Source of the DNA: Patescibacteria group bacterium
GTDB taxonomy: Bacteria > Patescibacteriota > Microgenomatia > UBA1400 > MFAQ01
Direction of reading: 5' to 3'
Assembly (NCBI GenBank): GCA_943355005.1
Contig: CALRDV010000001.1
Location: 92,632-156,631 of the forward strand
Length of the DNA stretch: 64,000 nucleotides
Part shown: positions 4,601 through 59,056 of the stretch, in pieces
Numbering within the stretch: the first letter of the stretch is position 1
How the letters are laid out: each line of letters starts with the position of its first letter
Made by a program: the position numbers and the translations under genes
The notes under the pieces: model-generated
What the model was told of the DNA's origin: nothing
Database searches by the model: none
What the model saw: only the letters and a program-made list of their open reading frames with translations

Positions 4601-6818
4601 TCAGATTCTCATGTCGGATGGAAAAACCAAGAATATTGAAGATGTTAAAGTCGGAGATAAAGTCAAAACTCTTACTTCTTCCGATTCAGATAAATTGGTA
4701 AGCGCCAAAGTTATCAAGACATTTGTTCACAAATTAGCTGGCTATCTTGTAATAAACAATCACCTTAGAGTGACCGGTGAACACAACTTATTTATCAACG
4801 GCCGATGGATGACTGCTTTGGAAGCCAAGGTAGGGGATTCTTATCTGGACGTAAATGGTAAATATCAGGATATTTATTCCATCGAAAATTATTCGGGAAT
4901 TAATACTGTCTACAACTTTACGGTCGAGAAACTCAGCACTTATTTTGCTGATGGATTCTATGTTCACAACGACAAGGGCCGTGAACTCTTTGTAGACAAT
5001 GCCTTCTTTGGTAGTGTCAGGACCGGTGCCGATGGTCGCGCCTCAGTAGACGTGAAGCTTCCCGACAATCTTACTTCCTGGAGAATCACATCTCAGGGAA
5101 TCACGGGAGATCTGAAGGTGGGTGTCGCTCAAACTCCACTTATCGTCAAACAACCTCTCTTTGTCGATGCCGTCATGAATACTGAATATGTCATCGGAGA
5201 TCATCCACAGATTTTAGTTCGTGTCTATGGTGAAGGATTGTCTACTGGGGAAAACGTAAATGTCGTGGTTCAGTCGGATAGTTTAGGAATCTCCAAAACA
5301 TTCTCAGTTAAAGCTTTTGAATCTTCCAAAATTGATCTTGGAGTGCTAAAGGAAGGTATCCATAAAATTTCTTTCACCGGGAACTCCGGAAGTTTGTCTG
5401 ACAAACTTATTCGTAGCCTTACCGTTATCCCATCCAGATTGCAGGTTGCTAAAACGGAAAGTTCGGCTCTTACTGCTGAGACTAAGCCTGTCGGATCCTC
5501 AAATTCTCCTACCGGAATATTTATTTCAGACCTAAGTTTGGGGCGTTTCTACCCTCCACTACTGAATCTGTCATATACATGGGGAGATCGTTTGGATCAA
5601 AGAATTGCCCGTACTCTTTCTCAAGAAATTATCAAAAAAAGTTTTGATGATACTGTTATTCCGGAAAAATTGGACCTAACTTCCTTTCAGACTGGTGAAG
5701 GTGGCTACGCTCTCTTTCCATACTCCGGTTCAGATTTAGAACTATCCGCCTTTGTGGCTGCTTTGGCTGGTGATAAAGTTGATAGAGTAGGTCTTGCCAA
5801 TTATTTCTATAGAAATCTTTCAAAAATTCAGGACTCGGAAGGCTTTGCCAAATCTCTATACGGTCTAGCTTCTCTGGATGAGCCGGTTCTTCTTTTAATA
5901 AACCGTCTCGATGAGACCAAAAATCTTTCGCCTATGGCTAGGATTTATATTGGCTTAGCTCAAGCCGCCATTGGAGATACCGAGAATGCGGCTGATACCT
6001 ATCGTTCACTAATATCTGAGTTTGCCATCCCACAAGATAATCTTACTTACATGAAGGTGGGAAATGATAAGGATAGCTTTTTAAGAGCCACCGCTCTTAC
6101 TTCTGCCTTAGCTTCAGTTCTAAGTGAGAAAGAAGCTGATAGTCTTTTGGCTTATACCTTAAGTAATAGGGCCAAAGATATTCTATTAGTTTCGCCGGAA
6201 TTAATATCCATCAAGAATCAAGTTAACAATTCTGTTCCTCAGCCTGTCTCTTTTGCTTACACTTTGGGTGGTAAAAAAGTCACTAAGAGTTTAGAAAAAG
6301 GAAAAGTATTTAAGCTGGAACTTTCACCCAAAGACTTGGCGGATATCACTTTCTCTGATATTGTAGGCAGTGTGGGGATAACTTCTGCTTACTTCACTCC
6401 CTTGGATCCCAAAACAGCAACTGTAGACCCGTCGGTAAAAGTTAGTCGAAATTATTCTGTCAAAGGTAAAGATACAACCGTGTTCTCTGAGTCTGATCTT
6501 GTCAAAGTCACTCTTCCGGTTACTTATGCCGCCATTACTCAGGATGGTTGTTATCAGGTCACAGACATCCTTCCGTCGGGTCTGAAACCTGTTACATCCA
6601 TGTCATCCATGATTAGCAATGCCTATCTATACCCCTATGATATCAATGGTCAGAAGGTCAGCTTCTGTGTCTCCAAGGGCGATACGAGGAGTAGTGTGTC
6701 CTATTATGCTCGAGTGATATCGGCAGGGGATTACAGGTCGGAGAACGCAATTATTCAGTCACTCAAGGCTCCGTCAATCTTCAATTTCTCACCTGCCGGA
6801 ACCGTGAGTATCAAATGA
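1602..6818 (+). CDS. Giant (1738 aa) membrane-anchored alpha-2-macroglobulin-like protein with degenerate thioester site, carrying a Hint/bacterial-intein-like domain at the bait-region position.
   Basis: N-terminal TM helix (ILSLIGIAVIVFGVIFASNYL). A2M MG motif 'AFFGSVRTGADGRASVDVKLPDNLTSWRI...GDLKVGVAQ' (compare human A2M 'PDTITEW'). Helical TED-like region 'TGEGGYALFPY...LSAFVAALAG' in place of CGEQ. Hint domain from 'GGGCFLPGTQILMSDG' to 'FYVHN'. Confidence 0.65.
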   Translation: MEKIKSGLRSFGVRNAILSLIGIAVIVFGVIFASNYLRSSARSRLGSDAGLVLTADREDTLGAFTDTTFTLKSDKDLSVSDVKKNIIFFPEIDFDVREVGSRQFSIKPKNNLNDNSLYRIKILSQAKTFSWAFQTKNDFRVVQSLPRDKGTYVPLNSGIEVTFSHDNWEDINFKTNNFEITPNVEGRFERHSRTLSFVPKSLAPDTLYTVKVKKGVVLKGSTDSLKEDYIFQFETQPASRDQVQLNLSRSFYEFSQAETPALDLYSSSQGGADVTVKVYQDPPQGFLSDLITKLSIPSWANNSLRNNRRPVSGLTKVLEFNTPIQKQTYTSYVMFPQTLPKGYYIVELNIGNVTTQALIQITDISAYLSVSGTKTVVWVNDLKTAGPISGAEVVLGEVKGTSVADGTVSFDTPLDKLSDIKYATVSKGDSKLFLPLQNSRYYYDASYQNSRRQTDKYWNYFYTDRPAYLPTDTLKFWGLLRDRDNLSQKQKFTLEVTRTDYSNWDFNPVVLFSREIETSDLGTFIGDIPLTNFNPGYYGVNLKLGSNIISSSSFSVETYTKPAYKISLNSPKKAYIIGDTVTFSGQATFFEGSPVPGMNLKYSIGGDEGKMSTDSMGKYSFNYTAGVSNNTYSYSPESKYINVYSALQEEGEINTNTSISVFDSSLVFGNSKSSTKDQAGNVEVDLRLVDTDKYVQGTPIEELFAPAPSRQITGDLMENQYVKKEVGTYYDFINKITTPRYEYSTVQNKIADITLTTDSNGKAVYSFPATKGKSYNVRLKASDDQGRVTSRDIYVSGYASDNYLNSYLYLKTNKTGEIQNRYSVGEQVSLTLMKGESELVTNSSDKFLYLFAQRGIKSYQITSGNSISFKYSDIFVPNINITAVRFTGKTYEVAENMSLYFDTSSKKLSLDVTKDKATYLPGDTAKISVLAKDFSGSPAQAEVNLSFVDEAYYALYSQYLDPLSRIYSQLDSDIIASYQSHRYPLDSGGAEGGGCFLPGTQILMSDGKTKNIEDVKVGDKVKTLTSSDSDKLVSAKVIKTFVHKLAGYLVINNHLRVTGEHNLFINGRWMTALEAKVGDSYLDVNGKYQDIYSIENYSGINTVYNFTVEKLSTYFADGFYVHNDKGRELFVDNAFFGSVRTGADGRASVDVKLPDNLTSWRITSQGITGDLKVGVAQTPLIVKQPLFVDAVMNTEYVIGDHPQILVRVYGEGLSTGENVNVVVQSDSLGISKTFSVKAFESSKIDLGVLKEGIHKISFTGNSGSLSDKLIRSLTVIPSRLQVAKTESSALTAETKPVGSSNSPTGIFISDLSLGRFYPPLLNLSYTWGDRLDQRIARTLSQEIIKKSFDDTVIPEKLDLTSFQTGEGGYALFPYSGSDLELSAFVAALAGDKVDRVGLANYFYRNLSKIQDSEGFAKSLYGLASLDEPVLLLINRLDETKNLSPMARIYIGLAQAAIGDTENAADTYRSLISEFAIPQDNLTYMKVGNDKDSFLRATALTSALASVLSEKEADSLLAYTLSNRAKDILLVSPELISIKNQVNNSVPQPVSFAYTLGGKKVTKSLEKGKVFKLELSPKDLADITFSDIVGSVGITSAYFTPLDPKTATVDPSVKVSRNYSVKGKDTTVFSESDLVKVTLPVTYAAITQDGCYQVTDILPSGLKPVTSMSSMISNAYLYPYDINGQKVSFCVSKGDTRSSVSYYARVISAGDYRSENAIIQSLKAPSIFNFSPAGTVSIK
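4584..4970 (+). other. Hint / bacterial intein-like (BIL) domain, about 129 aa, embedded in the A2M-like protein. The flanks are DSGGAEGGG|C ... VHN|DKG, so there is no C+1 nucleophile.
   Basis: N-terminal splicing motif C-F-L-x-G-T-x-I; block B 'TGEH'; C-terminal 'VHN'. The following residue is Asp, as in BIL domains rather than canonical inteins. Confidence 0.6.
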
Positions 6819-8614
6819 AGCATCTTAAGAAGCATCTTGTCATTCCGGGCCCTGCCTTGCTAGTAGGCAGGTTGACCCGGAATCCATCTGGATTTGTAAT
6901 TGGTCTTCTGTTGTCCTTATTACTTATCGTACTTGGAATAAACATTTTACTTTCTTATAAGCCCAGAAAAACAATTTCTCTAAAGCCAACCTTCTCCACA
7001 GACTTTGCCTATGACAATCGTACTTTTCTCCACGCCGTAGCCGAAAACAAAAGTATTGGAGGTTCTATTCCGAGTGTCGTTATCCTACCCCACCATCTAC
7101 TTGCTTCCACCATTATTGCAGAAGGCATTTCGATGTTGGCGAGGCAGTCACCTAAAACTATTATTATTCTTTCTCCAAATCATGCGAATACCGGCCAGTG
7201 TGACATTGTTACTTCACGAAATAGTTGGGAGACTCCCTTTGGTCAAATGGATGTTGATCTAGATATTCAAAAGATATTTTTGGATTCCAAGATTATATGT
7301 ACAGACGACACCGCTATGCAGGTGGAGCACGGTGTAGCCGGTCTTTTGCCATTTATTAAATATTATCTACCGAACACTAAAGTTGTTCCTTTGGCACTAA
7401 AGAAAGAAATTGATCCTAATTCGTTCAAAATATTTACTCAAAAATTAATTGAAGTTTCCAAAAACTCTACCATTTTAGCCTCCATCGACTTCTCTCATGG
7501 TCTGTCTCAGAAGGAATCATTAAAGCGGGACAGCCAAACAAAAAGTTTAATTGCCAATCTTAATTATTCGGAATTAGAAAAATTATCTTCTGAGTACATA
7601 GACTCCCCAATATCTCTCATTTCTGCACTAAGTGTAATTAATTCCTATGGTTCCAAGCCCGAATTTCTCGTTCACTCCGACTCGTCAGCATTCAATAGAG
7701 ACACCAAAGATGTCACCTCATATTTTTTGATTTCCGACACACCGTCATTGCGAGGTACTCCGCGGCAATCTACCGGCTCGAACGACTCCTTCACCCTTGT
7801 CTTCGGCGGAGACGTCATGCTTGGTCGTTCTGTGAACACTCGCATGCTCAAATATTCAGATTTCACTTGGCCTTTTTTAAAAATATCAACTTTACTTTCC
7901 CAAGCAGATTTAACTCTGGTGAATCTGGAGTCGCCCTTTCGCTCTGGATGCAAAGAGTCTGATTCTGGAATGGTTTTCTGTGCGGATCCACGGTCCATCG
8001 AAGGTTTACTCGCCGCAGGAGTGGATGTTGTGAATCTGGCCAACAACCATATTGATAACCAGGGAAAAGAGGGGATAACTGAGACTTTGGAGATTTTAAA
8101 TAAGAATAATATTGTCTCTGTGGGGGTGGACCCCCGCGACCACCCAACTCCGTCAAATATTTTCACCATCAAAAACACCAAAATCGCCTTCCTCGGCTTT
8201 GACGATATTCGACCCGTCTCATCGGAAGTTACTTCTGCCACTCCGGAAAATATCAAGACTCAAATCGCTGAAGCCAAAAAGATGTCTGATCTTGTTGTAG
8301 CCACCTTTCACTGGGGAAGCGAATACAGTTCTCACAATTCCGGACAAGAATATTTGGCTCATCTAGCTATTGATTCCGGTGCCGACTTGGTCATTGGTCA
8401 TCACCCCCACTGGGTTCAGGAGTTTGAAGAATACAAAAGCAAGCCCATCTATTATTCTTTGGGAAACTTGGTCTTCGATCAAATGTGGTCCGACAAGACC
8501 AGAAATGGACTAGTTGTCAGATTCACTTACACTGGTTCCGATTTGCTCAACAGAGAAGAATTCCCCATCAAGATTTTTGACTACGGCCAACCGGCTCTGC
8601 TATACAATAAGTAG
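6815..8614 (+). CDS. Membrane-anchored fusion protein: MEMO1/AmmeMemoRadiSam-B-like domain fused to a CapA/PGA_cap metallophosphatase-like domain. The N-terminal tail is encoded by a palindromic repeat.
   Basis: Memo-like 'ILPHHLLAST...LSPNHAN...WETPFGQMDVD...VEHGVAGLLPFIKYYLP'. CapA-like 'FGGDVMLGR...NLESPF...NLANNHIDNQG...HWGSEYS...IGHHPHW'. TM 'FVIGLLLSLLLIVLGINILL'. The ATG overlaps the stop of the upstream gene (ATGA). Confidence 0.6.
   Translation: MKHLKKHLVIPGPALLVGRLTRNPSGFVIGLLLSLLLIVLGINILLSYKPRKTISLKPTFSTDFAYDNRTFLHAVAENKSIGGSIPSVVILPHHLLASTIIAEGISMLARQSPKTIIILSPNHANTGQCDIVTSRNSWETPFGQMDVDLDIQKIFLDSKIICTDDTAMQVEHGVAGLLPFIKYYLPNTKVVPLALKKEIDPNSFKIFTQKLIEVSKNSTILASIDFSHGLSQKESLKRDSQTKSLIANLNYSELEKLSSEYIDSPISLISALSVINSYGSKPEFLVHSDSSAFNRDTKDVTSYFLISDTPSLRGTPRQSTGSNDSFTLVFGGDVMLGRSVNTRMLKYSDFTWPFLKISTLLSQADLTLVNLESPFRSGCKESDSGMVFCADPRSIEGLLAAGVDVVNLANNHIDNQGKEGITETLEILNKNNIVSVGVDPRDHPTPSNIFTIKNTKIAFLGFDDIRPVSSEVTSATPENIKTQIAEAKKMSDLVVATFHWGSEYSSHNSGQEYLAHLAIDSGADLVIGHHPHWVQEFEEYKSKPIYYSLGNLVFDQMWSDKTRNGLVVRFTYTGSDLLNREEFPIKIFDYGQPALLYNK
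6839..6892 (+). repeat. GTCATTCC...GGAATCCATCTGG palindromic repeat with a nested inner palindrome, translated as 'VIPGPALLVGRLTRNPSG' at the N-terminus of the Memo/CapA gene.
   Basis: gtcattccgggccctgccttgctagtaggcaggttgacccggaatccatctgg. Confidence 0.8.
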
Positions 8615-11120: not shown

Positions 11121-11145
11121 CGTCATTGCGAGTTTCGTTATTTAG
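11121..11145 (+). repeat. Truncated copy of the GTCATTGCGAG-type repeat.
   Basis: cgtcattgcgagtttcgttatttag. Confidence 0.5.
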
Positions 11146-12916: not shown

Positions 12917-14494
12917 ATGTCCATACTCTCAATTTTTAGGTCAAATATTTTCAAGAATTACTCCTCCAAGGATAAAACAAAACCTGTAGCCTCAGTTTCC
13001 GCACCTGAGCCAAAAGCTCTGGTTCAAGAACCGGCAAAAGTAGCTCCTGCGGTAGTTCAAGCCCCTTCGGTAGATACAGCCGCCATCATCGCCGCCGCTC
13101 AAGCAACCGCTCAGTCCCAGGCTCGAGAGATTATCATTTCAGCCAAGGATGAAGCTTTTAAGCTCAAAGATCAGGCTATCAAAGACGCCCGTATTCAGCT
13201 GGAAGAAATCGAGGTCAGAGCCAAGAATTTAGCCACCAAACAACAGAGTATTACAGCTATAGAAGATCAGCTTAAGAGAGAAAAGACCAACATTGATACC
13301 CAGACTAAGCAAGTCGAAGAGCTTAAGGCTAAAATCGCTACCCAAGCCGATTCCATGGTCGAAAAGCTGGAAAAGATAGCTTCTCTTACCACCGAACAAG
13401 CCAAAAAGGAGCTTATCTCCATGGTCGAGAAAAGAGCAGCTGTTGAAGCTGCCAGAGCGATCAAAGAGTCTGAGGAAAGAGCCAAGATAGTTGCAGAGGA
13501 CCAAGCTAGAGAAATCCTTGTAGATGCCATGAAATCGGGTGCCACCGACTACGTTGCCGAATATACTATTTCTACCGTTCCAATCCCGGACGAAGAAACC
13601 AAAGGTCGTATTATTGGTAAAGATGGACGAAATATTCGCATTTTCGAAAAAGTTTCCGGCTGTGACGTTTCCATGGACGACGGTCCCGACGAAGTTAAGC
13701 TGAGCAGTTTTGATCCGGTCCGGAGAGAGATTGCTCGCTTAACATTAATTCATTTAATTAAAGATGGCCGTATTCATCCAGCTCGTATCGAAGAATACTT
13801 CGAAAGATCAAAGAAAGATGTTGAACAAATTATGTTTCAAGAAGGTCAGAAGCTTTGTCACGCTGTCGGTGTTTACAATATGAATAGAGAAATTATCCAA
13901 ATGTTGGGTCGTTTCAAATTCCGAACGTCTTACGGCCAAAACATGATTAGTCATACCTTGGAGGAGACAAGAATCGGTATCAAGATAGCAAGCGAGGTTG
14001 GAGCCAATGTTGACACTGTTCGCATGGGGTGTCTCTTACACGACATCGGAAAAATTATCGAAGGCGACGGAAATCACGTTGAGCTTGGAGTTGCCTATCT
14101 TAAGAAATTTAATATTCCACAGACCATTATTGACTGTGTGGCTCAACATCACGAAGATGAAGAGTTCACTTCAAATGAATCTGTCATTGTTTACATTTCC
14201 GATGCTATCTCAGGTAGTCGCCCCGGCGCTCGTCATGAAAATACCGAAGAATACGGTAAACGCATTCGACATCTGGAGGAAATTGCCCGCAAACACCCTG
14301 AGGTCGATGATGCTTATGCCATCTCAGCCGGACGCGAGATTAGAGTCATTGTTAATCCTAGTAAAGCAGGAGACGAGCAATTAATTATCTTGGCTCAAGC
14401 CATTAGGGATGAAATCAGGGACACTATGACCTTCCCAGGCACCGTCAAGGTGAACGTTATCCGCGAAACTCGTGCCAGCGAAATCGCCAGCTAA
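12917..14494 (+). CDS. rny: Ribonuclease Y (KH + HD domains).
   Basis: KH 'GRIIGKDGRNIRIFEKVSGCDV'; HD 'LLHDIGKIIEGDGNHVELGVAYLKKF...AQHHEDEE'; long coiled-coil N-terminus. Confidence 0.85.
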   Translation: MSILSIFRSNIFKNYSSKDKTKPVASVSAPEPKALVQEPAKVAPAVVQAPSVDTAAIIAAAQATAQSQAREIIISAKDEAFKLKDQAIKDARIQLEEIEVRAKNLATKQQSITAIEDQLKREKTNIDTQTKQVEELKAKIATQADSMVEKLEKIASLTTEQAKKELISMVEKRAAVEAARAIKESEERAKIVAEDQAREILVDAMKSGATDYVAEYTISTVPIPDEETKGRIIGKDGRNIRIFEKVSGCDVSMDDGPDEVKLSSFDPVRREIARLTLIHLIKDGRIHPARIEEYFERSKKDVEQIMFQEGQKLCHAVGVYNMNREIIQMLGRFKFRTSYGQNMISHTLEETRIGIKIASEVGANVDTVRMGCLLHDIGKIIEGDGNHVELGVAYLKKFNIPQTIIDCVAQHHEDEEFTSNESVIVYISDAISGSRPGARHENTEEYGKRIRHLEEIARKHPEVDDAYAISAGREIRVIVNPSKAGDEQLIILAQAIRDEIRDTMTFPGTVKVNVIRETRASEIAS

Positions 14495-14496
14495 AT

Positions 14497-14568
14497 CGTC
14501 ATTGCGAGGAACGAAGTGACGTGGCAATCCAGGAATTGTCATCCTCGCGAAAGCGGGGATCCATCTGG
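14497..14568 (+). repeat. Two adjacent palindromic repeats, B-type (GTCATTGCGAG...GTGGCAATCCAGG) followed by A-type (GTCATCCTCGCGAAAGCGGGGATCCATCTGG).
   Basis: cgtcattgcgaggaacgaagtgacgtggcaatccaggaattgtcatcctcgcgaaagcggggatccatctgg. Confidence 0.8.
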
Positions 14569-14657
14569 ATAAGTAATTGATAAACTTGCACGAGACGTAT
14601 TTAGATGGTAACATCAGTTAAATTATTATTAAAGTTTCTGCCCGGAAAGAGGAATTA

Positions 14658-14933
14658 ATGACCAAACAGACCCTTATTAACATCGTCAGTAAGAAGGTTC
14701 ACTTGACCAAGAAAGCCGTCAAGGAGACAGTCGACTCATTCTTTGAAGAATCCATTGCCGCCTTGGGCAAAGGTGAAAAAGTCGTCATCTCAGGTTTCGG
14801 AACTTTTTACATCGGTAAAGTCGAAGATAAGCAAGTAGTTCCTTTTGGAAACGAAAACAAACGTCAAGTTGTCAAAGGTCATAAGGTTATCAACTTTCAT
14901 GTTGGAAAACCTTTGAAGAAGAAAGTTGCCTAA
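14658..14933 (+). CDS. hup: HU-family DNA-binding protein.
   Basis: HU signature 'VVISGFGTFYIGKVEDKQVVPFGNENKRQVVKGHKVINFHVGKPLK'; RBS 'aagaggaa' 6 nt upstream of the ATG. Confidence 0.85.
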   Translation: MTKQTLINIVSKKVHLTKKAVKETVDSFFEESIAALGKGEKVVISGFGTFYIGKVEDKQVVPFGNENKRQVVKGHKVINFHVGKPLKKKVA

Positions 14934-16096
14934 TGCCTTCAGTTTTCATAAATACTTTTGGTTGCCAAGCCAACAAATCAGATTCAGAAAGACTTCTGGG
15001 TGATTATCTTGCCCGCGGTTACTCAGAAACTTCCAATTGGCGGGAAGCAGACGAAATCGTCATCAATACCTGTTCTGTTCGACAATCAGCGGAAGACCGT
15101 GTTACCGGCTTCCTCCTAAATGTTGATAAATATTTCCTTGGCCTCCCCGCCGTGGAGGGCAAACCCAAACCAAAAATTATACTTACCGGCTGCATGCTCC
15201 ATTTTAACGAAAAGGAGATCAAAGCTCTTTTGCCTCAGATAGATGAAATTCTTCCGATAAGTGAAGTAGGTTTCAATCAAAAGGCAATCCGTAAGGATAA
15301 AGATAAAGCTTTTATTCCCATTTCTTCGGGCTGCAATTCCTTCTGCACCTTCTGTATCGTTCCTTTTTCTAGAGGTAGAGAGAGGTCTCGACCATTAGAA
15401 GACATAGTTAAAGAAGTCGAAGAGCTGGCAGCTAATGGTTACTCCGAAATAACACTTCTGGGTCAGAATGTAAATTCTTACGGCCTTGAAAAGGTGGGTG
15501 TTGCTCTTCGAAAAATGTTTATGGACAAGGATAAATTTTCTCCCGATATTATTCCCTCAAACCAGTCACAATACTTTAAGCCGGAAGACACTCCGCCATT
15601 TGTTACCTTACTAAAAGCTGTAAGCAAGATAGACGGTATAAACAAAATTAGTTTCTTCACCAGCAACCCTTGGGATTTCTGGGATGAGTTAATAGACGAA
15701 ATAGCTATCAATCCCAAGATTGATCGATTTATTCATTTGCCGGTCCAGTCAGGTAGTAATCGTATTTTAAAGCTGATGAATAGGGGATACACAAGAGAGT
15801 CATATCTAACTTTAATTAATCAAATTAAAGCCAAGGTCTCTGATGCGGTTTTTGGCACCGACATTATCGTGGGATTCCCTGGTGAAACAGATGAGGACTT
15901 CGAAGAGACTAAGAATCTTATTATGGAAGTTGACTTCAAAGTTGCTTTTGTAGCTAGATATTCACCCAGACCCGGAACTGCTTCGTCCAGGCTTTACCCT
16001 GACGATATCCCTGCCAAAGTAAAGAAACAGCGTTGGGAAATTCTCGATCAAATCGCCAATAAGGATAACTTAAAATCCCGCCCCATAGTCCCATAA
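14933..16096 (+). CDS. miaB: MiaB-like radical-SAM tRNA methylthiotransferase (no TRAM domain).
   Basis: UPF0004 N-domain 'INTFGCQANKSDSER'; radical SAM 'CNSFCTFCIVP'; adjacent to miaA. Confidence 0.7.
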   Translation: MPSVFINTFGCQANKSDSERLLGDYLARGYSETSNWREADEIVINTCSVRQSAEDRVTGFLLNVDKYFLGLPAVEGKPKPKIILTGCMLHFNEKEIKALLPQIDEILPISEVGFNQKAIRKDKDKAFIPISSGCNSFCTFCIVPFSRGRERSRPLEDIVKEVEELAANGYSEITLLGQNVNSYGLEKVGVALRKMFMDKDKFSPDIIPSNQSQYFKPEDTPPFVTLLKAVSKIDGINKISFFTSNPWDFWDELIDEIAINPKIDRFIHLPVQSGSNRILKLMNRGYTRESYLTLINQIKAKVSDAVFGTDIIVGFPGETDEDFEETKNLIMEVDFKVAFVARYSPRPGTASSRLYPDDIPAKVKKQRWEILDQIANKDNLKSRPIVP

Positions 16097-16113
16097 ATAA
16101 ATTTAACAACAAC

Positions 16114-16263
16114 GTGTCATTCCGAGCGAAGTCTAGGAACCTGCCTGCCGGCAGGCAGGTCTCCCTCCACCCGTCATTGCGATGAGCGAAGCGTGGTGGC
16201 AATCCAGGAAGTATAAAATCAATAATATCTGTCATTCCGGGCTTGACCCGGAATCCATCCGGG
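16114..16263 (+). repeat. Intergenic cluster of three palindromic repeats (A-type, B-type, A-type) plus a CTGCCGGCAGG / CTCCCTCCACC sub-motif.
   Basis: gtgtcattccgagcgaag...ctgcctgccggcaggcaggtctccctccacccgtcattgcgatgagcgaagcgtggtggcaatccagg...ctgtcattccgggcttgacccggaatccatccggg. Confidence 0.8.
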
Positions 16264-16286
16264 AAATATAAAATGGTAAATATTAA

Positions 16287-17297
16287 ATGAAAAACATACT
16301 CGTCATCTGCGGTCCAACGGCCTCAGGCAAAACCTCCCTCGCCCTCTCCATCGCCAAAGAAATTTTTTTCCCTCGCTCAAGTGTCATTCCCGACCCGCTT
16401 CGACGTAGCTTCAGCGAGGCGAGCCTGATCGGGAATCCATCTGGTAAATCAGTCCACATCCTCTCCGCCGACTCCCGCCAAATCTACAAAGGTCTCGACA
16501 TTATCACGGGCAAAGATATCCCGGCAGACTTGCCGTCTAATATAAAGTTCTTTGGCCTAGACCTAGTGAGTCCAAATCAAGTTTTCAATGTGTCTGATTT
16601 TGTTGCATATTCCCAAAAAATAATTACAGATTCAGCCGAGCAAAACATCCCCTTAATCATTGTTGGAGGTACAGGTTTGTATCTAAAAGCTATCACATCA
16701 AATCTTTTAGATGTTCACGTTCCGCCTGATAAGGAGCTCCGCTCAGAGCTGGAAAAATTAACCCTTTCAGATCTAAAAAAAAGACTGGAAGAACTAAATC
16801 CAAGCAAATATTCTTCTCTTAACAATTCCGATCTAAACAATCCCCGTCGCCTCATCCGTGCCATCGAAATCTCATATTCCTTCAAGCAAACTAACGTCAT
16901 TCCGGGCTTGACCCGGAATCCAGAACAATTTCACGACCAAAATCAAAACTTCCTCTGGCTCGGTCTAAAAGTCGATAAGCAAATCCAGGAAAACAAAATC
17001 CACCAACGGGTACTGGACCGTTTAGAAAACGGCGCCATTGACGAAGTCAAAAAGCTCATACCACACTATCCGGATACCTCGCTACCCATTCACTCTAGTC
17101 TTGGAGTAAAGCAAATCAAAGAATATTTAGCGGGGAATATATCCAAGGAACAGTTAACAGATTTGTGGACCAAAGTCGAAGTTGATTATGCTCGTCGCCA
17201 AATGGTCTGGTTCAATAAACAAAGTGGGATAGTTTGGTATGATAAAGATAGTATTAATCAGGAGTTGGTTGCATCTCTAGCAGAACAATTAAAATAA
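16287..17297 (+). CDS. miaA: tRNA dimethylallyltransferase MiaA, carrying two in-frame palindromic-repeat insertions.
   Basis: P-loop 'ICGPTASGKTSLAL'; 'ILSADSRQIYKGLDIITGK', 'IIVGGTGLYLKAITSNL'. Inserted peptides 'SSVIPDPLRRSFSEASLIGNPSG' and 'NVIPGLTRNPEQ'. Confidence 0.85.
   Translation: MKNILVICGPTASGKTSLALSIAKEIFFPRSSVIPDPLRRSFSEASLIGNPSGKSVHILSADSRQIYKGLDIITGKDIPADLPSNIKFFGLDLVSPNQVFNVSDFVAYSQKIITDSAEQNIPLIIVGGTGLYLKAITSNLLDVHVPPDKELRSELEKLTLSDLKKRLEELNPSKYSSLNNSDLNNPRRLIRAIEISYSFKQTNVIPGLTRNPEQFHDQNQNFLWLGLKVDKQIQENKIHQRVLDRLENGAIDEVKKLIPHYPDTSLPIHSSLGVKQIKEYLAGNISKEQLTDLWTKVEVDYARRQMVWFNKQSGIVWYDKDSINQELVASLAEQLK
16383..16444 (+). repeat. Composite A-type palindromic repeat inserted in-frame inside miaA, between the P-loop and the SADSRQIY motif.
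   Basis: gtcattcccgacccgcttcgacgtagcttcagcgaggcgagcctgatcgggaatccatctgg; 62 bp, not a multiple of 3, so the surrounding sequence must compensate to keep miaA in frame. Confidence 0.8.
16896..16923 (+). repeat. A-type palindromic repeat inserted in-frame inside miaA, encoding VIPGLTRNP.
   Basis: gtcattccgggcttgacccggaatccag. Confidence 0.85.
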
Positions 17298-17298
17298 A

Positions 17299-18294
17299 AT
17301 GCTTAAAAAGAAACACATCACTTTCGATATCTCTATTGGCAGTATTTTTTGGATCCTTTTTTCTCTAGCTCTTGTATACATACTTATCAAGCTTACAGGG
17401 GTCATCATCCTTCTCTTTACAGCCATTCTCATTACCCTTGCTATATGCCCTTTAGTTGACTGGTTAGATAAATACAAAATAAAAAGAGGAATATCTGCAA
17501 TATTAATTTTATTATTGATTTTTGGTTCCATTATTACAATTACAATTTCCATAGCGGCTCCTTTAGTAGAGCAAACGCAGCTATTCTCTCAAAGACTTCC
17601 TGAAATTATTGATAGAGTTAGTCCCTTAAAGTTCGTAGATGGTTCATTTAGTACACAGTTTGCAGCAGTTCCAGGCAAAGTCTTAAACATTGCACTCGAC
17701 ACCTTCTCGGGATTTATCACGGCTTTCACAGTAATAGTTTTAAGCTATTACATGATTCAAGAGATGCACAATCTCAAAAAGTATCTTACTTATTGGTTTG
17801 GAGAAAAAGGACTTACTTACAATACCATCGCCGAGAAACTCGAGGTCCAAATTGGTAACTGGGTTAGAGGTCAACTTCTACTCATGCTTATCGTTGGCTT
17901 CTTAAGTTATCTTGGCTACCTCATTATTGGTATTCCCTTCGCTCTGCCGTTAGCGTTTTTTGCCGGTCTATTGGAGCTTGTACCAAATATCGGGCCTACA
18001 ATCGCGGCTATTCCTGCTATCTTGGTTGGATTTTCAATCTCCACTAACCATGGAATAGCAGCTCTGATTGTTTGTTTGGTCGTTCAGCAATTAGAAAACA
18101 ATCTAATTGTGCCGAAAATCATGCAACAGGTGACCGGTCTAAATCCAATAATTACCATTATCGCTATCATGATTGGCTTCCAGGTCGGTGGTCCGCTTAT
18201 GGCAGTTCTTGCTTTGCCGGTTGTCCTCTCAGCAAGAGTAATTTTCAGTCACATTAGCTTAAACAAAGACACCACCATCCCCGAAATAGACTAA
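17299..18294 (+). CDS. AI-2E family (PerM/UPF0118) transporter-like membrane protein.
   Basis: About 8 TM segments; the motif layout (conserved segment '...ELVPNIGPTIAAIPAILVGF...') is typical of AI-2E permeases. Confidence 0.65.
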   Translation: MLKKKHITFDISIGSIFWILFSLALVYILIKLTGVIILLFTAILITLAICPLVDWLDKYKIKRGISAILILLLIFGSIITITISIAAPLVEQTQLFSQRLPEIIDRVSPLKFVDGSFSTQFAAVPGKVLNIALDTFSGFITAFTVIVLSYYMIQEMHNLKKYLTYWFGEKGLTYNTIAEKLEVQIGNWVRGQLLLMLIVGFLSYLGYLIIGIPFALPLAFFAGLLELVPNIGPTIAAIPAILVGFSISTNHGIAALIVCLVVQQLENNLIVPKIMQQVTGLNPIITIIAIMIGFQVGGPLMAVLALPVVLSARVIFSHISLNKDTTIPEID

Positions 18295-18296: not shown

Positions 18297-18902
18297 ATGA
18301 AATCGCTTTCTTGTATTTGCTTGTTGGATAACGCGTCCGAAGAGAAAATTTCATCACTAACAAAAACTCTTTCTAGTGAAACTAATTCAAAAAAGATGCT
18401 ATCTTATCCACCACATCTTACTCTTCGTGGTGACTTTGAAATTAAAGATGAAAATATTCCTATTTTGATTTCTGATCTTTCAGACGTAGCTTCACTTCAA
18501 AAAAAGATTGTTGTTCAAACCTCTAAATTCGAATTCTATCCTTGGAAAATGGTTTCTCTGGAAGTAATAAGCAATTCTGCTCTGGATAATTTACACATCA
18601 TGGCTATGGACACAATTCAAAAATATCGAACTGCTTGGATTCCACAAGTGCTAATAGATAACACTTCCGATTACACAGAAAAACAGAAAGAATATATCCA
18701 CGAGTTTGGATACCAATTTGCGTATGAGTATTTTTCTCCACACTTTGGTTTGGCAGGCAATGATATGACTCAGGAAATTTTTGACACCATCAAAGTCAAA
18801 TATCATAATCGGGAAGAAAAAATAAATGTATCTTTAGAAAAAATTGCCTTAATCGATAGGGAAAAGAATAATCAGCCAATCGCCACTTTTTCACTTACAT
18901 AA
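18297..18902 (+). CDS. Hypothetical protein (201 aa).
   Basis: There is a single 'HLTL' motif, but no second H-x-T/S-x motif, so I do not call it a 2H phosphoesterase. Confidence 0.4.
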   Translation: MKSLSCICLLDNASEEKISSLTKTLSSETNSKKMLSYPPHLTLRGDFEIKDENIPILISDLSDVASLQKKIVVQTSKFEFYPWKMVSLEVISNSALDNLHIMAMDTIQKYRTAWIPQVLIDNTSDYTEKQKEYIHEFGYQFAYEYFSPHFGLAGNDMTQEIFDTIKVKYHNREEKINVSLEKIALIDREKNNQPIATFSLT

Positions 18903-18910: not shown

Positions 18911-18926
18911 AGAACCCTTTCGGGTT
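18911..18926. terminator. Bidirectional hairpin terminator. On the minus strand it reads GAACCCGAAAGGGUUC + UUUUU at the rnpB 3' end; on the plus strand it follows 18297..18902.
   Basis: aaaccaaaaagaaccctttcgggttc. Confidence 0.6.
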
Positions 18927-19236
18927 CCCTAGGACAATAAGCCGGATTCTGTCGTGGAGGAATATCTATCTATGCTCGAGACTTTAGGGACGGAAAAGAC
19001 ACCTTAATCCCAATTCGTCGATTGCAGCAGGGCGGGTTACCACTCCTCTAGGATTTCTCCTAGCGGATCTCCACCTAGCGGTGGAACGTTTCACCTTTAA
19101 TCGTCTCTGTGGCCCTATCGTGCCCTGTAGGTCGCCCCACAAGGAGCCGGGTTTCCCCGGCCACCCTTTCTTTTAGCTGTCCGGACTTTCCTCCCCACTC
19201 TTGCGAGTAGGGCATTCCTCTCGTCCTAGGGAAGCC
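18921..19236 (-). ncRNA. rnpB: RNase P RNA (bacterial type, reduced size, about 316 nt).
   Basis: The minus strand contains P4 5' strand 'GGAGGAAAGUCCGGAC', P4 3' strand 'ACAGAAUCCGGCUUA', 'AAGGUGAAACG', 'GGUAACCCGCC', and a P1 helix UCCCUAGGAC/GUCCUAGGGA. High GC in an AT-rich genome. Confidence 0.8.
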
Positions 19237-19706: not shown

Positions 19707-20396
19707 ATGCAACCAAACGTACTCTTATCTTTCCAAAGCTCGTTCTCTTTAGCCGCCAACCAAGTCCTGGTCGGCATTATTAGTTTCTTGCCAAACATCT
19801 TAGGTGCCTTAGTTCTTTTCCTTGTGGGTTGGATAATTGCCGATTGGCTAAAATCTCTCACAACCAAAGTCGTAAATATCACCAAATTAGATGCTTTGAT
19901 AAATAATCCGGCCGTTAAAGATTTTCTGAAGAATGCTCAAGTTTCACAAAAATTGGAAGTAATCATCGGAGAAGTTGTGAAGTGGCTAGTCATCACTTTA
20001 TTCTTTGTCGCCAGTATCAATCTTCTCGGCATCACCTCCATTAGTTTGTTTTTAAATGGAATTATCGCCGGCATTCCCACACTTATCGCCGCCGTCTTAA
20101 CACTCGTCATCGGCGTCGTCGTTGCCGGCTTCTTGGAGAAGATGGTAAAGGGTTCCTACGGTTCCAAAGATGCTTCCACCGGTCGCTTTATCGGTAAAGC
20201 TGTCAGTTACGCCGTCATGACTTTCTTCGTCCTAGCCGCCCTCTCACAGCTTGGCATTGCCAGCTTCTTCATCAACACTGTCTTTATTGGCTTTATCATG
20301 GCCATTGCCTTAGCACTCGGGATTGGTCTGGGTCTTGGCTCCAAAGATCTCATCAAAAAAATATTAGAAGACTGGTACAAGAAAATCGAGAAATAA
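19707..20396 (+). CDS. Membrane protein with conserved TM-helix repeats (MscS-N-terminal-like).
   Basis: Repeated hydrophobic helices such as 'ALVLFLVGWIIADWLKSL...'; 4-5 TM segments. Confidence 0.5.
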   Translation: MQPNVLLSFQSSFSLAANQVLVGIISFLPNILGALVLFLVGWIIADWLKSLTTKVVNITKLDALINNPAVKDFLKNAQVSQKLEVIIGEVVKWLVITLFFVASINLLGITSISLFLNGIIAGIPTLIAAVLTLVIGVVVAGFLEKMVKGSYGSKDASTGRFIGKAVSYAVMTFFVLAALSQLGIASFFINTVFIGFIMAIALALGIGLGLGSKDLIKKILEDWYKKIEK

Positions 20397-21646: not shown

Positions 21647-21709
21647 CCGTCATTGCGAGGAGGTATTCCGACTGTTTACCCCGGCCAGCAGGCGGGGTGG
21701 CAATCCAGG
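21647..21709 (+). repeat. B-type palindromic repeat with an extended inner segment.
   Basis: ccgtcattgcgaggaggtattccgactgtttaccccggccagcaggcggggtggcaatccagg. Confidence 0.8.
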
Positions 21710-24217: not shown

Positions 24218-25567
24218 ATGACACTCTCAAAGCCACAAAAAACTTCTATTGGTGTTTTTATTCTTACGATCATCTCGCTCTACATAATTCTTCCTGCCAA
24301 ATTAGGCAACTTCAATGTTCCGAGAATCAATTTCAAGCTTGGCAACTTTGATTTCTCCAAAGAAATCGAACTTAAGCAAGGCTTGGATATTAAAGGTGGT
24401 CTACAAGTAGTTCTTAACGCAGACATGAAAGACATTGCTCAGGGAGACCGTCCATCAGCTTTAGAATCTCTAAAAAATGTTATCGGCAGAAGAGTAGATC
24501 TTTTTGGTGTTTCCGAATCGGGTGTCAAGACAGCCATGTCCGGCAATGACTACAGACTTATTCTAGAACTACCCGGAGTCACCGATCCCCAGCAAGCTTT
24601 ATCCCTCATTGGTCAAACCGCCAAGATGGTTTTTGCCCTTCCGATATACACTCCAGGGAAAACCGCCTCTGATTCAGCCACTCTTACCGGCTTTAGCCCC
24701 ACAGATCTCACGGGTGCCGACTTGGCCAGAGCTCAAGTTACTTTTGAGTCACAAGATAGATCTCCGGCTGTTTCCATTACTTTCAAAGACACCGGAAAAA
24801 CCAAGTTCGCCAAGCTAACCAAAGAAAATATCGGCAAACCTGTAGCAATTCTATTGGATGGATATCCCATTACCATGCCCACAGTTCAAGCCGAAATCGA
24901 TAGCGGAAGTGCTGTCATTACCGGCAAATTTTCAACCGACGAAGCCAAAGCTTTATCCGTTCAGTTAAATGCAGGAGCACTCCCTGTTCCTGTTTCTATC
25001 CTAAGTCAGAAAAATATTCCCGCGACTTTAGGTGCCGACTCCATCAAGAAAAGTATTACCGCCGGAGCTATCGGATTATTCATGGTTATCTTTTTTATGA
25101 TTGCATACTATGGTTGGATGGGTGTCATCGCCTCCGTTGGTTTGATACTCTATGGTGTTTTTACTTTAGCTCTCTACAAATTAATTCCCGTGGTTCTTAG
25201 TCTACCCGGTATTGCCGGTTTCCTCTTGTCCGTCGGTATGGCTGTAGATAGTAACATTCTGGTATTTGAAAGATACAAAGAAGAAATTCGCGCCGGTCGG
25301 GATTGGCGAGTTGGCTTAGAGCTAGCCTTTGGTCGAGCTTGGGACTCAATCAAAGACGCCAACACGGCTACTATTATTACCGGTTTAATTCTCTTTAATC
25401 CTCTTGAATGGAGTTTTTTAAATACCTCAGGCTCTGTCCGAGGTTTTGCCCTGACACTAATTTTGGGAATTTTTATCTCTCTCTTCACGGGCATTGTCGT
25501 CACCAGAAATCTCCTCCGCATCTTCTTCAAGGGCAAATCCTCTTCGTCATTGCGAGGAACAAAGTGA
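24218..25567 (+). CDS. secD: Protein translocase subunit SecD. Its C-terminus and stop codon are supplied by a palindromic repeat.
   Basis: 'KPVAILLDGYPITMPTVQAEIDSGSAVITGKFSTDEAKAL'; 'GVIASVGLILYGVFTLALYKLIPVVLSLPGIAGFLLSVGMAVDSNILVFER'. Confidence 0.9.
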   Translation: MTLSKPQKTSIGVFILTIISLYIILPAKLGNFNVPRINFKLGNFDFSKEIELKQGLDIKGGLQVVLNADMKDIAQGDRPSALESLKNVIGRRVDLFGVSESGVKTAMSGNDYRLILELPGVTDPQQALSLIGQTAKMVFALPIYTPGKTASDSATLTGFSPTDLTGADLARAQVTFESQDRSPAVSITFKDTGKTKFAKLTKENIGKPVAILLDGYPITMPTVQAEIDSGSAVITGKFSTDEAKALSVQLNAGALPVPVSILSQKNIPATLGADSIKKSITAGAIGLFMVIFFMIAYYGWMGVIASVGLILYGVFTLALYKLIPVVLSLPGIAGFLLSVGMAVDSNILVFERYKEEIRAGRDWRVGLELAFGRAWDSIKDANTATIITGLILFNPLEWSFLNTSGSVRGFALTLILGIFISLFTGIVVTRNLLRIFFKGKSSSSLRGTK

Positions 25568-25680
25568 CGCGGCAATCTATATTCGTCATTCCTGCGAAGG
25601 CAGGAATCCATAAAAACAAACACAAATTAATATTAAATCGTAATAATCTGTCATTCCCGACCTGATCGGGAATCTATAAA
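25545..25680 (+). repeat. Cluster of three palindromic repeats (B, A, A types) between secD and secF. The first overlaps the last codons and the TGA stop of secD.
   Basis: cgtcattgcgaggaacaaagtgacgcggcaatct ... ttcgtcattcctgcgaaggcaggaatccataaaa ... ctgtcattcccgacctgatcgggaatctataaaa. Confidence 0.8.
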
Positions 25681-28222: not shown

Positions 28223-28648
28223 TCAATGAGTGACACAAACGTTTGACTCGCATGTGCAGAAAACATTTTCTCTAGATGGTGCCTCACCATTGCGCCTTCC
28301 TACCGATTCAGCCTCCTTTTGTATTTTTGCTACATATTCAGGGGTATGACACCCTCCGGTGAACCATATGTATTTACAATCATCATTCTGATTACACGAA
28401 TCTTCATTCTTTTTAACATTGTCTACGTTTTGTTCCGTTCGGGTGATATTTACTCTAGATTTCGCAAGCGAAATAACGAGTCGAATAATTAATGGGCTAT
28501 TCCATCCGATATCACCTTCATTAGGACAGTAACGAGCTGGTTTTCCTGGCGGAGTTTCACAAAAAATTATGCCATAACGGAAAGGTATGGGGGTGAATAA
28601 AAATATGATTATTATGAGAACAAGTGCTAGCGATATTTTCTTAAGCAT
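28223..28648 (-). CDS. Secreted Cys-rich hypothetical protein.
   Basis: Signal/TM 'ISLALVLIIIIFLFTPIPF'; 8 Cys. Confidence 0.45.
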   Translation of the reverse strand: MLKKISLALVLIIIIFLFTPIPFRYGIIFCETPPGKPARYCPNEGDIGWNSPLIIRLVISLAKSRVNITRTEQNVDNVKKNEDSCNQNDDCKYIWFTGGCHTPEYVAKIQKEAESVGRRNGEAPSRENVFCTCESNVCVTH

Positions 28649-28689
28649 AATCTCAGCATATCAGAAATGGGTATATCAAATACCAACTA

Positions 28690-28730
28690 GCTCGCTGGGT
28701 TGGACGACTATCGAACCATTGCCGAAATAG
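28690..28730 (+). repeat. Copy 1 of a ~45-bp direct repeat (consensus about TTGCTCGCTnGrrGGGACGATTTTCGAACTATTTCAGmACAAA).
   Basis: gctcgctgggttggacgactatcgaaccattgccgaaatag. Confidence 0.6.
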
Positions 28731-28770
28731 AATTAAGCTCTGAAGACGCCACTAATGATATAATATAATT

Positions 28771-29007
28771 ATGAAAACAATGACATGTAGCCAACTCGCT
28801 GGAGCTTGCGAAATGAAGTTTAGTGCGGAAACATTTGGTGAAATTGCACAGCTTAGTCAGCAGCACGGCACAGAGATGTTTAAAGCAGGCGACGCACAAC
28901 ATCTATCTGCACAGCAAGAAATGATGAAACTAATGTCCGACCCATCTGCAATGCAAAAATGGATGGATCAAAAACAACAAGAGTTCGACTCGCTCCCGGA
29001 AGATTAG
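28771..29007 (+). CDS. DUF1059-like small protein (MKTMTC...C motif).
   Basis: 'MKTMTCSQLAGACEMKFSAETFGEI...' matches the DUF1059 N-terminal pattern from memory. Confidence 0.55.
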   Translation: MKTMTCSQLAGACEMKFSAETFGEIAQLSQQHGTEMFKAGDAQHLSAQQEMMKLMSDPSAMQKWMDQKQQEFDSLPED

Positions 29008-29015
29008 TTAATTTA

Positions 29016-29062
29016 TTTGCTATCCGGGTGGGACGATTTTCGAACTATTTCAGAACAAAGTT
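29016..29062 (+). repeat. Copy 2 of the ~45-bp direct repeat.
   Basis: ttgctatccgggtgggacgattttcgaactatttcagaacaaagttt. Confidence 0.65.
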
Positions 29063-29066
29063 TTGC

Positions 29067-29495
29067 TTATCTTGTCTGTGAGTAAATCTCCGTTTCAGTC
29101 CAATTCCATGCATACCAGACAATATACAAGGTACACGCAATTTCTATAGCAGAGAAAAACGCGTAATACATTGTTGGCGTTCCGATAAATAACGTCAATG
29201 TTTGGACAGCAGTCATTATTATGCCTGAGATAATGTTTGCCTTGCGATTTGCCTTATTCTTCAATATTCGAGATAAAAGAACCATACCAATCGGAATCTC
29301 CAATAGAAATGCTGCTCCCAATAAAAACCCTGGTGTTAGCTGAATTGTCACATCTTTTATAGGATCCATTACCGTAATAACATCGCAATAAAGATAATTG
29401 AGAAGTGCAAACAACCATAATGTTGAAAGCATTACTTTCTTGTCCATAGATTTTTTACTTGTAATCATTTTTTCTTTCATAAAGAATGCTAACAC
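29067..29495 (-). CDS. Hypothetical 4-TM membrane protein.
   Basis: Hydrophobic helices; flanked on both sides by direct repeats. Confidence 0.5.
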   Translation of the reverse strand: MLAFFMKEKMITSKKSMDKKVMLSTLWLFALLNYLYCDVITVMDPIKDVTIQLTPGFLLGAAFLLEIPIGMVLLSRILKNKANRKANIISGIIMTAVQTLTLFIGTPTMYYAFFSAIEIACTLYIVWYAWNWTETEIYSQTR

Positions 29496-29523
29496 AAACA
29501 GCAGAAGTCAATTTCGAGTCCAA

Positions 29524-29568
29524 ATTGCTCGCTAGAAGGGACGATTTTCGAACTATTTCAGCACAAAA
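29524..29568 (+). repeat. Copy 3 of the ~45-bp direct repeat.
   Basis: attgctcgctagaagggacgattttcgaactatttcagcacaaaa. Confidence 0.65.
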
Positions 29569-41965: not shown

Positions 41966-42000
41966 CTTGTCATTCCGGGCTTGACCCGGAATCCATCTGG
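41966..42000 (+). repeat. A-type palindromic repeat just downstream of the zinc-ribbon gene; may act as its terminator.
   Basis: cttgtcattccgggcttgacccggaatccatctgg. Confidence 0.8.
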
Positions 42001-43435: not shown

Positions 43436-43440
43436 TTACC

Positions 43441-58115: not shown

Positions 58116-58147
58116 GACTCAATTTACCACGAGTAACTTTTTCAATG

Positions 58148-59047: not shown

Positions 59048-59056
59048 TTTCATTTG

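Follow-up and report, generated by a model that had tools for sequence, protein, structure and literature searches.

The question raised by the 64,000-nt stretch of patescibacterial DNA analysed here (GenBank assembly GCA_943355005.1, contig CALRDV010000001.1, positions 92,632 to 156,631; referred to below as the window) is what the short palindromic repeats are that crowd its intergenic spacers, and which protein might act upon them. Three abutting or nearby units of this kind stand at 16114-16263, between miaB (14933-16096) and miaA (16287-17297). The window repeats were assigned with high confidence to the NTS/SRM class of hairpins (SRM, Ssn-related motifs), whose characterised enzyme is the GIY-YIG nuclease SsnA. 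The best explanation overall, to which we give a probability of roughly 0.6, is that these hairpins are the subject of a process acting on one DNA strand, with a small Ssn-like GIY-YIG protein encoded beside one of the arrays as the candidate partner. The element class and the enzyme family are already published. What seems to be new relative to that work (PMC11893778) is the patescibacterial host, the absolute co-orientation of single copies in mixed arrays and the recurrent insertion of translated copies at fixed hot spots of essential genes.

A family of co-oriented hairpins

A manual census of the window (G+C about 41%) yielded 27 copies of a unit composed of a pyrimidine, GTC, an imperfect palindrome whose base is always AT...AT, and C, which fell into subtypes A, A', B and C. 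A GTCATT terminus had been proposed for all copies in a preliminary description of this DNA; the terminus actually carried by all 27 is YGTCAT, with the pyrimidine at position -1, and subtype A' begins with GTCATC. Units were 26-57 nt long, and their commonest 3' end was ATC[C/T]A. Subtype A was represented by 12 copies (ten full ones, two of these with nested inserts, one 5' half, and the copy inside the GIY-YIG gene), subtype A' by two of the form GTCATCCTCGCGAAxGCGGGGATCCA, subtype B by nine, including one 5' half and one split copy, and subtype C or C' by three. Subtypes B and C bear an extra 3' tail, ATCTCNCTCCACC. The sequence CTCCCTCCACC is a variant of the 3' tail ATCTC[A/C]CTCCACC borne by B and C copies, those of relatives included, and CCGGCAGGC forms the middle of a small, separate palindrome that is nested in or appended to several copies and was also found in two related loci, L083 and L210.

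A mechanical scan of the window for GTCAT followed by a stem of 5 bp or more and then ATC gave 23-26 matches on the + strand and none on the - strand, which is above chance, as block shuffles gave about 7 with both strands summed. Furthermore, a direct-repeat finder applied with no structural criterion recovered the repeats independently as families D2, D3, D4, D5, D8, D11 and D17. The copies were spread across 45 kb at irregular spacing, neighbours of mixed type often abutting, and about one quarter of the intergenic spacers of the window held an element. The arrays reported earlier at 14497-14568, 16114-16263, 25545-25680, 48276-48460 and 51786-51927 were present as described, and the census likewise confirmed several interleaved subtypes of oriented palindromic elements, with nested copies at 6839-6888 and 16383-16439. 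The intergenic location also ascribed to the repeats held for these spacer arrays but not for at least six copies that lie in frame inside genes. The copies, all on the + strand, were as follows.

6839-6888 (+): A-type, placed in the Memo/PGA_cap gene leader, its loop containing a nested 21-nt palindrome
7744-7772 (+): B-type, in frame (SLRGTPRQS), in the Memo-PGA_cap interdomain linker of the open reading frame (ORF) 6815-8614
11122-11132 (+): B-type, 5' half only (GTCATTGCGAG); repeat family D5
14498-14531 (+): B-type, 3 nt past the RNase Y stop codon; orthologous copy in L084, none in L083
14538-14563 (+): A'-type (GTCATCCTCGCGAAAGCGGGGATCCA), fitting the published SRM pattern
16116-16172 (+): C-type, GTCATTCCGAGCGAAGTCTAGGAA, then a perfect nested palindrome, CCTGCCTGCCGGCAGGCAGG, then the tail TCTCCCTCCACCC
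16173-16206 (+): B-type, GTCATTGCGATG...GGCAATCCA; repeat family D8
16231-16257 (+): A-type, GTCATTCCGGGCTTGACCCGGAATCCA, with a perfect 8-bp stem and a DNA-fold z-score of -3.2
16383-16439 (+): A-type with nested insert, 57 nt, in frame in miaA
16896-16922 (+): A-type, at the second hot spot of miaA, where its 27 nt are in frame and read as VIPGLTRNP
21649-21705 (+): B-type with a nested hairpin (CCCCGGCCAGCAGGCGGGG)
25546-25577 (+): B-type, source of the last 7 codons and the stop codon of secD
25585-25610 (+): A-type, the sole copy with at most three mismatches to the Neisseria NTS consensus
25650-25676 (+): A-type, in the secD-secF spacer, which is empty in L083 and L084
33352-33378 (+): A-type, in frame (WIPGQARND, read from the - strand), in the CCA-adding enzyme gene, within a 27-aa insertion relative to PDB 1miv
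39923-39948 (+): A'-type, within the part of gltX for the anticodon-binding domain, in frame (VILANAGIHP); fits the SRM pattern
41969-41995 (+): A-type, intergenic
43391-43440 (+): B-type with the tail ATCTCACTCCACC, abutting the stop codon of the gene at 43441-45093 (-)
48279-48347 (+): C-type with the hairpin TCGCCGGCAGGCGA and the tail ATCTCCCTCCACCCACCC
48350-48376 (+): A-type
48388-48436 (+): C'-type variant (GTCATTTCGACCGAG...CTCCTTCCACC) with a weak fold
48440-48603 (+): B-type 5' end (GTCATTGCGGGG) and, about 125 nt apart from it, B-type 3' end with tail (CGCGGCAATCTAGCTTATCAACCACCT), either one split element or two half elements; families D5 and D11
49652-49678 (+): A-type, in frame (WIPGQARND, read from the - strand), in the nadE linker between the CN-hydrolase and NAD-synthase domains
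51788-51831 (+): B-type with tail, opening the array that separates adk from the GIY-YIG gene
51832-51852 (+): A-type, 5' half only
51853-51878 (+): A-type, fitting the SRM pattern
51897-51923 (+): A-type; read as its reverse complement, it codes for WIPGQARND at the C-terminus of the GIY-YIG protein

The A and A' copies form perfect 8-bp hairpins as single-stranded DNA (ssDNA), with fold z-scores of about -2.7 to -3.2. In an alignment that combined 12 such copies of the window with 7 of other loci (19 in all), the bases G, T, C, A and T before the inner part of the stem and A, T and C on the 3' side were invariant, as were the first two pairs (A-T and T-A) and the fourth (C-G), and the inner stem was variable, with compensatory changes on both sides at five of the eight pairs. 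Pairing was found in 99.3% of the alignment cells, a percentage inflated by ascertainment, as part of the alignment came from a scan that required a stem, and it fell to 15-55% in controls in which the 3' partner was slid; the copies of the window were also found from sequence similarity alone, as direct-repeat families D2-D4. These data show that the hairpins form an oriented family and that selection acts on the stem and on the positions contacted by SsnA.

The orientation of the repeats was the same for all 27 copies (two-sided binomial probability about 1.5e-8). Gene direction in the window is + as far as about 42.4 kb and predominantly - thereafter, and 10 of the 27 copies sit among - strand genes. 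As co-orientation is kept whatever the direction of transcription, insertion or retention would act on one DNA strand and not on RNA. The GC skew of the + strand was -0.086 overall and negative in 25 of the 32 two-kb bins. A leading strand usually holds more G than C, and the C-rich + strand of the window would therefore be the leading-strand template. A strand-acting process tied to replication is most likely, in which co-orientation could result from strand-specific insertion at the replication fork or, alternatively, from selection against having the cleavable strand on the lagging-strand template, which is exposed. The same pattern of co-orientation was seen in five syntenic relatives.

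Occupied and empty sites, and copies inside genes

The window also forms part of the ENA metagenome contig ERZ27280309 k141_147785 (223 kb), whose NCBI copy measures 326,620 bp. Judged from protein matches and gene order, the uncultured source organism lies within the Microgenomates/Patescibacteria, close to Candidatus Collierbacteria. Its MiaA is 60% identical to a Collierbacteria protein, its GIY-YIG protein is 75-80% identical to those of Collierbacteria loci, and the order recA-recX-rny-hup-miaB-miaA...secD-secF is kept in five relatives. Several GTDB records with Collierbacteria-like genes and synteny (L002, L004, L010 and others) are titled 'uncultured Pseudomonadales' or 'Gammaproteobacteria', and these titles are unreliable for taxonomy.

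Comparison with the relatives shows that elements have been gained or lost at orthologous sites. The spacer between the GIY-YIG gene and adk is about 150 nt long in the window and contains four elements, while no elements stand there in L004, L007 and L008, three Collierbacteria loci in which the conserved TGAGGGTTGTGTTTTG...ATG of adk follows the GIY-YIG gene directly. The secD-secF spacer, which holds three elements in 134 nt in the window, is 27 nt long in L083 and absent in L084. Between the genes for RNase Y and HU, the spacer is empty in L083, and a near-identical B copy follows straight after the stop codon in both the window and L084; the second element behind this copy differs between the two. 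The miaB-miaA spacer had a different set of elements in each genome compared. Twenty-seven copies in four subtypes, together with five relatives in which orthologous sites are either filled or empty, make the window a compact natural data set.

Further copies elsewhere, which the preliminary description had anticipated, were found at L082:19466, in the syntenic relatives and in metagenomes. The exact A-type 27-mer GTCATTCCGGGCTTGACCCGGAATCCA was found in JGI metagenome contigs, more than 120 in number (among them L085-L204) and ranging from 36 to 66% G+C, commonly in a convergent doublet with a reversed canonical NTS at a distance of 8-25 nt (more than 100 contigs). These doublets often lie inside a larger unit with terminal inverted repeats (tatacatnacgacataagtc ... 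gattaatgtcgctgt), suggesting a widely transferred composite that resembles a miniature inverted-repeat transposable element (MITE).

The in-frame copies are carried by miaA (two copies), the CCA-adding enzyme gene, nadE, gltX and the Memo/PGA_cap gene, and these ORFs are all intact, with both flanking domains still recognised. The insert at 16383-16439 in miaA is part of a 28-aa insertion, in which residues 27-56 stand in place of 2 residues of PDB 2qgn, and that at 33352-33378 in the CCA-adding enzyme gene lies within residues 135-166, which stand in place of 5 residues of PDB 1miv. Relative to solved homologues, the insert at 49652-49678 adds 7 residues to the interdomain linker of NadE, and that at 39923-39948 in gltX adds just about 2 and is ambiguous. 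Clearly delimited intragenic A units measure 27 or 57 nt. In + strand genes the peptide from an A unit is VIPGLTRNP, and in - strand genes it is WIPGQARND; the remaining forward frame holds TGA, and persistence in stop-free frames is therefore expected. Repeats were also found to supply C-termini, a B copy providing the last codons of secD and an A copy the last 11 codons of the GIY-YIG protein. When 23 MiaA orthologues were aligned, two shared hot spots became apparent, which hold differing repeat-derived peptides across Collierbacteria (examples being SLRGAKRRGNLTPP, HSGLDPESR, VIPAEAGIHP, VISGLTRNPSGI, RHCEARSAAAIQ and LRGGIPTWQS) and none in the other orthologues. Repeats of this kind create spurious or extended ORFs and repeat-derived peptides in protein annotation of the Candidate Phyla Radiation. 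Repeated colonisation of the same loops in frame, as in MiaA, and co-orientation irrespective of transcription both offer testable handles on how the elements spread.

The in-frame copies recall the Rickettsia palindromic elements (RPEs), which occur in frame in unrelated housekeeping genes at surface-permissive sites and lengthen the protein by short peptide segments without destroying it (PMC10969869), just as window copies are inserted in frame in MiaA, the CCA-adding enzyme and NadE. RPEs are, however, about 100-150 bp long and Rickettsia-specific, whereas the window units are 26-57 nt long, carry a CGTCAT/ATC signature and are mostly intergenic. RPEs and SRM repeats may be related, Rickettsia being SRM-rich, and the hot-spot insertions described here connect the NTS/SRM repeats with the RPE phenomenon. 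A literature search on palindromic in-frame repeats in the Candidate Phyla Radiation found nothing relevant.

The class of the repeats and a candidate enzyme

The NTS, CGTCATTCCCGCGMAVGCGGGAATCYRG, and the broader SRM were defined by Chenal et al. (Nat Commun 2025; PMC11893778), the characterised Ssn systems being those of Neisseria and Wolbachia and the SRM-rich genomes including Rickettsia. SsnA is a 94-aa single-domain GIY-YIG protein (cd10448) that binds the forward strand only, as ssDNA, and nicks it a few nucleotides upstream; binding is determined by the C just after the palindrome and cleavage by the GTC before it, and the catalytic residues Y6, Y17 and E64 were those mutated in N. meningitidis SsnA (PMC11893778). 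The positions invariant across the window subtypes, GTC and the 3' C, are these same binding and cleavage positions. The window repeats further resemble NTS/SRM elements in being oriented hairpins, 26-34 nt in length, that begin with CGTCAT and end with ATCYRG, and in their many copies per genome clustered around genes. A small single-domain GIY-YIG gene lies beside one array. The hand-made search pattern published for SRM, HGTCWYN(0-2)YYVSBRHN(0-5)WNVSBRGN(0-2)RNCYNB, was matched by three of the 27 copies (14537, 39922 and 51852) where 0.14 matches were expected, and one copy (25585-25610) lies within three mismatches of the 28-nt NTS. In a metagenome contig (L169) the exact A-type 27-mer flanks a cd10448-like GIY-YIG gene, and a GIY-YIG gene on a Shinella plasmid is bracketed by GTCATCCTCGGGCTTGACCCGAGGATCCA.

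Several features set the window apart within this class. NTS/SRM elements include the dRS3/NIME of Neisseria, but the canonical dRS3 core ATTCCC-N8-GGGAAT had no match in the window. Unlike the published elements, the window copies are all co-oriented singlets in mixed tandem arrays, several of them are translated in frame within essential genes, and their host is a Patescibacterium, a name absent from the text of PMC11893778. The window GIY-YIG protein, moreover, is not clearly a cd10448 member, and repeats were found on the 3' side of its gene only.

That gene was located by a six-frame motif scan and is described by the following entry.

51888-52169 (-): candidate Ssn-like partner, gene for a 93-aa single-domain GIY-YIG nuclease (PF01541, E = 2.8e-16)

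The PF01541 match spans residues 4-76 of the 93, with no further domains, and orthologues are 79-106 aa long. Residues Y16 and E65 were invariant in 36 orthologues and Y6 nearly so (at least 90%); together these correspond to Y6, Y17 and E64 of SsnA by position only, not by alignment. The protein is 37% identical to the SRM-flanked Shinella protein (tblastn E = 3e-11), and NCBIfam holds no specific model for it. The array at 51788-51923 abuts and overlaps the 3' end of the gene, and there are no repeats on its 5' side. In the preliminary description, all copies were suggested to depend on a common enzyme acting in trans, with no transposase in the window. Dependence on a GTCAT-reading protein is very probable, but the second statement, read as the absence of any mobilising enzyme, overlooked the best candidate, the GIY-YIG gene adjoining the array. 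By analogy with the Ssn systems, it is plausible that the window GIY-YIG protein is the cognate enzyme of the hairpins.

Under this explanation the forward strand would fold as ssDNA and, as with Ssn in Neisseria and Wolbachia, its hairpin would be recognised by the GIY-YIG protein, which would bind and cut the hairpins and help them to spread. Copies would then build up in a lineage-specific manner just 3' of stop codons and in permissive loops or linkers of housekeeping proteins, those inside proteins persisting only in stop-free frames, in which they are translated. If mRNA 3' ends are affected at all, this would be a secondary consequence. The explanation would also add the Patescibacteria to the hosts of the Ssn/SRM hairpin system, which was described in 2025.

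A number of observations weigh against this explanation. As regards the repeats, only the three copies mentioned fit the SRM pattern, with A (8-bp stem, 5-nt loop), B and C falling outside it, and B and C copies fold weakly, with only a 5-bp terminal stem and internal structure. We know of no copying mechanism for NTS/SRM elements, those of Neisseria included. The relatives that share the co-orientation are syntenic and so provide no independent test of a link to replication, and among 120 metagenome contigs with the A-type 27-mer the GC skew showed no relation (35 negative, 37 positive), these contigs carrying mostly convergent doublets, an arrangement unlike that of the window. As regards the protein, the similarity found with hhalign was no greater to the Shinella protein (E = 8.7e-16) than to E. 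coli YhbQ (E = 5.2e-16, indicative only), and the best PDB matches were the UPF0213 proteins 1zg2 and 1ywl (E = 7e-8 and 5e-5). In single-domain size and in its best solved structures the protein thus resembles YhbQ/UPF0213 (cd10456), a group for which we know of no association with hairpin repeats. As regards the gene, its adjacency to an array may be a coincidence given that about one quarter of the spacers are occupied. In Collierbacteria it occupies a conserved slot between the gene for a zinc-ribbon membrane protein and adk, without repeats there, and 80 genomic loci with orthologues gave 38 relaxed GTCAT hairpins compared with 22 in shuffles, barely above background, and 15 strict matches in 680 kb. 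The conserved slot and the near-background number of hairpins indicate that the GIY-YIG gene is not itself mobile and does not predict repeats nearby.

A further-reaching and distinctly speculative proposal, which we regard as rather unlikely, is that the Ssn-SRM pair might serve as a strand-locked form of self-marking. The cleavable forward strand of each hairpin would be held on the leading-strand template, so that ssDNA at the host replication fork would never be a substrate, and incoming ssDNA from transformation, conjugation or ssDNA phages, with the motif either way round, would be cut. One-strand insertion of new copies would at the same time write peptides (VIPGLTRNP, WIPGQARND, SLRG...NLTPP) into loops of essential proteins, and the RPE-type 'coding selfish DNA' of Rickettsia and the NTS of Neisseria might then reflect one GIY-YIG-driven mechanism that reaches the Candidate Phyla Radiation.

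Alternative explanations and other features of the window

An alternative that is unlikely but deserves serious consideration is that the repeats are relics, horizontally acquired, non-autonomous MITE-like elements spread or kept only by recombination, gene conversion and drift, with the GIY-YIG protein an unrelated YhbQ-like repair nuclease. This would agree with the vertical inheritance of the GIY-YIG gene in a fixed slot, usually without surrounding repeats, with the equal similarity of its product to YhbQ/UPF0213 and to Ssn-like proteins, and with the occurrence of the A-type 27-mer in contigs of widely differing G+C content, often within larger units that have terminal inverted repeats at their ends. 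Moreover, the B copy that follows RNase Y is orthologous in the window and L084 and is therefore old, not recent. However, the positions read by SsnA are invariant while the stems covary, which argues for ongoing selection by a sequence-reading protein; element types also turn over at the same sites among close relatives, and drift alone would hardly yield strict co-orientation.

It is improbable that the repeats are primarily RNA-level signals, namely terminators, 3'-end stabilisers or regulatory stem-loops selected in spacers; the preliminary description had suggested that the arrays, lying where terminators or promoters are expected, may double as regulatory hairpins. Many copies do lie 0-25 nt from a stop codon, the palindromic core would form a stem in the mRNA of either strand, and REP elements stabilise upstream mRNA. 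No T-run follows the stems, however, and no element in 14000-17500 was called terminator-like. The flanks are asymmetric (GTC and C), do not vary and keep one orientation whichever strand the gene is on, as would not be expected of a function tied to transcription, and the copies within coding sequence do not conform to such a role either. At the Rfam gathering threshold there was no match at the repeats, the matches in the window being the RNase P RNA and two tRNAs. An effect on mRNA 3' ends may nevertheless exist as an exapted, secondary one.

A still less probable explanation is that the repeats are REP/BIME-like elements mobilised by a RAYT (a Y1 HUH, IS200-like enzyme) encoded elsewhere in the genome. 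They do resemble the REP/BIME and REPIN elements of E. coli and Pseudomonas, which are short hairpins with a conserved 5' oligonucleotide in mosaic intergenic clusters 3' of genes. A single-strand-specific enzyme acting in trans is presumed in both cases, single-strand chemistry could give a replication-strand bias, and the metagenome 27-mer occurs in REPIN-like convergent doublets. A Y1_Tnp-like protein is furthermore encoded near secF in two syntenic relatives (L084:20064-20624, 27.4 bits, and L210). On the other hand, the 5' motif of the window repeats is YGTCAT, whereas that of REPs is GTAG, the candidate enzyme is a GIY-YIG protein and not a Y1 HUH enzyme, and the window copies are not inverted doublets. 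The IS200/IS605-type TnpA or other HUH partner proposed earlier found no counterpart, as no Y1/HUH or transposase match was obtained among the scanned ORFs of at least 100 aa, which comprise most of those in the window. The Y1_Tnp-like protein of L084 retrieved nothing in the window or L082 by tblastn, and its gene is bracketed by a different hairpin, GGGGTTTCATTTATGAAACCC. CGTCAT hairpins, by contrast, have been tied experimentally to the GIY-YIG protein Ssn (PMC11893778).

In L084 (20064-20624) and L210 (20679 onwards), the Y1_Tnp (IS200/RAYT-like) gene was seen to contain, and then to precede, a hairpin of its own, CCCGTAGGGGTTTCATTTATGAAACCC. This pair, which the window lacks, is another hairpin-plus-enzyme system of the lineage and unrelated to the first.

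A CRISPR array or other spacer-acquiring repeat locus, with which the region shares short palindromic repeats and nothing more, is excluded by the anatomy of the elements, as the preliminary description had also held: spacing is irregular, mixed units abut with no unique spacers between them, copies are scattered over 45 kb, some of them inside genes, and the scanned ORFs contain no cas domains.

Other features of the window were noted in passing. The ORF at 78-1547 contains, at 207-376, tandem repeats of 12 and 18 nt, whose product is a stretch rich in Pro and Thr (TPKPTPTP...). The 1738-aa alpha-2-macroglobulin-like ORF at 1602-6818 (+) includes, at about residues 989-1123, a Hint/intein-like module (PF07591 PT-HINT, PF05203 and PF14623) situated between the bait-region and A2M domains, as is likewise the case in the L209 orthologue. 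At 41413-41943 (+), a 176-aa protein consists of three 53-aa repeats (159-nt period), each of them a Top1-type C4 zinc ribbon. Within 28688-29572, a 48-nt segment (D7) is present in three copies, 67-81% identical, at the ends of the neighbouring - strand ORFs 28223-28648, 29067-29495 and 29553-30227, which are probably tandem paralogues; one of these matches DUF6326. Around the tRNA-Gln gene at 59056-59128 (-), at 58131-58245 and 58958-59073, there are two pairs of 74-81% identical segments (D13 and D19), and one of the pairs overlaps the 3' part of the tRNA, which may reflect partial duplication of the tRNA or the scar of an old integration. The bacterial class A RNase P RNA (119.7 bits) lies at 18922-19232 (-), between the ORFs 18297-18902 and 19707-20396.

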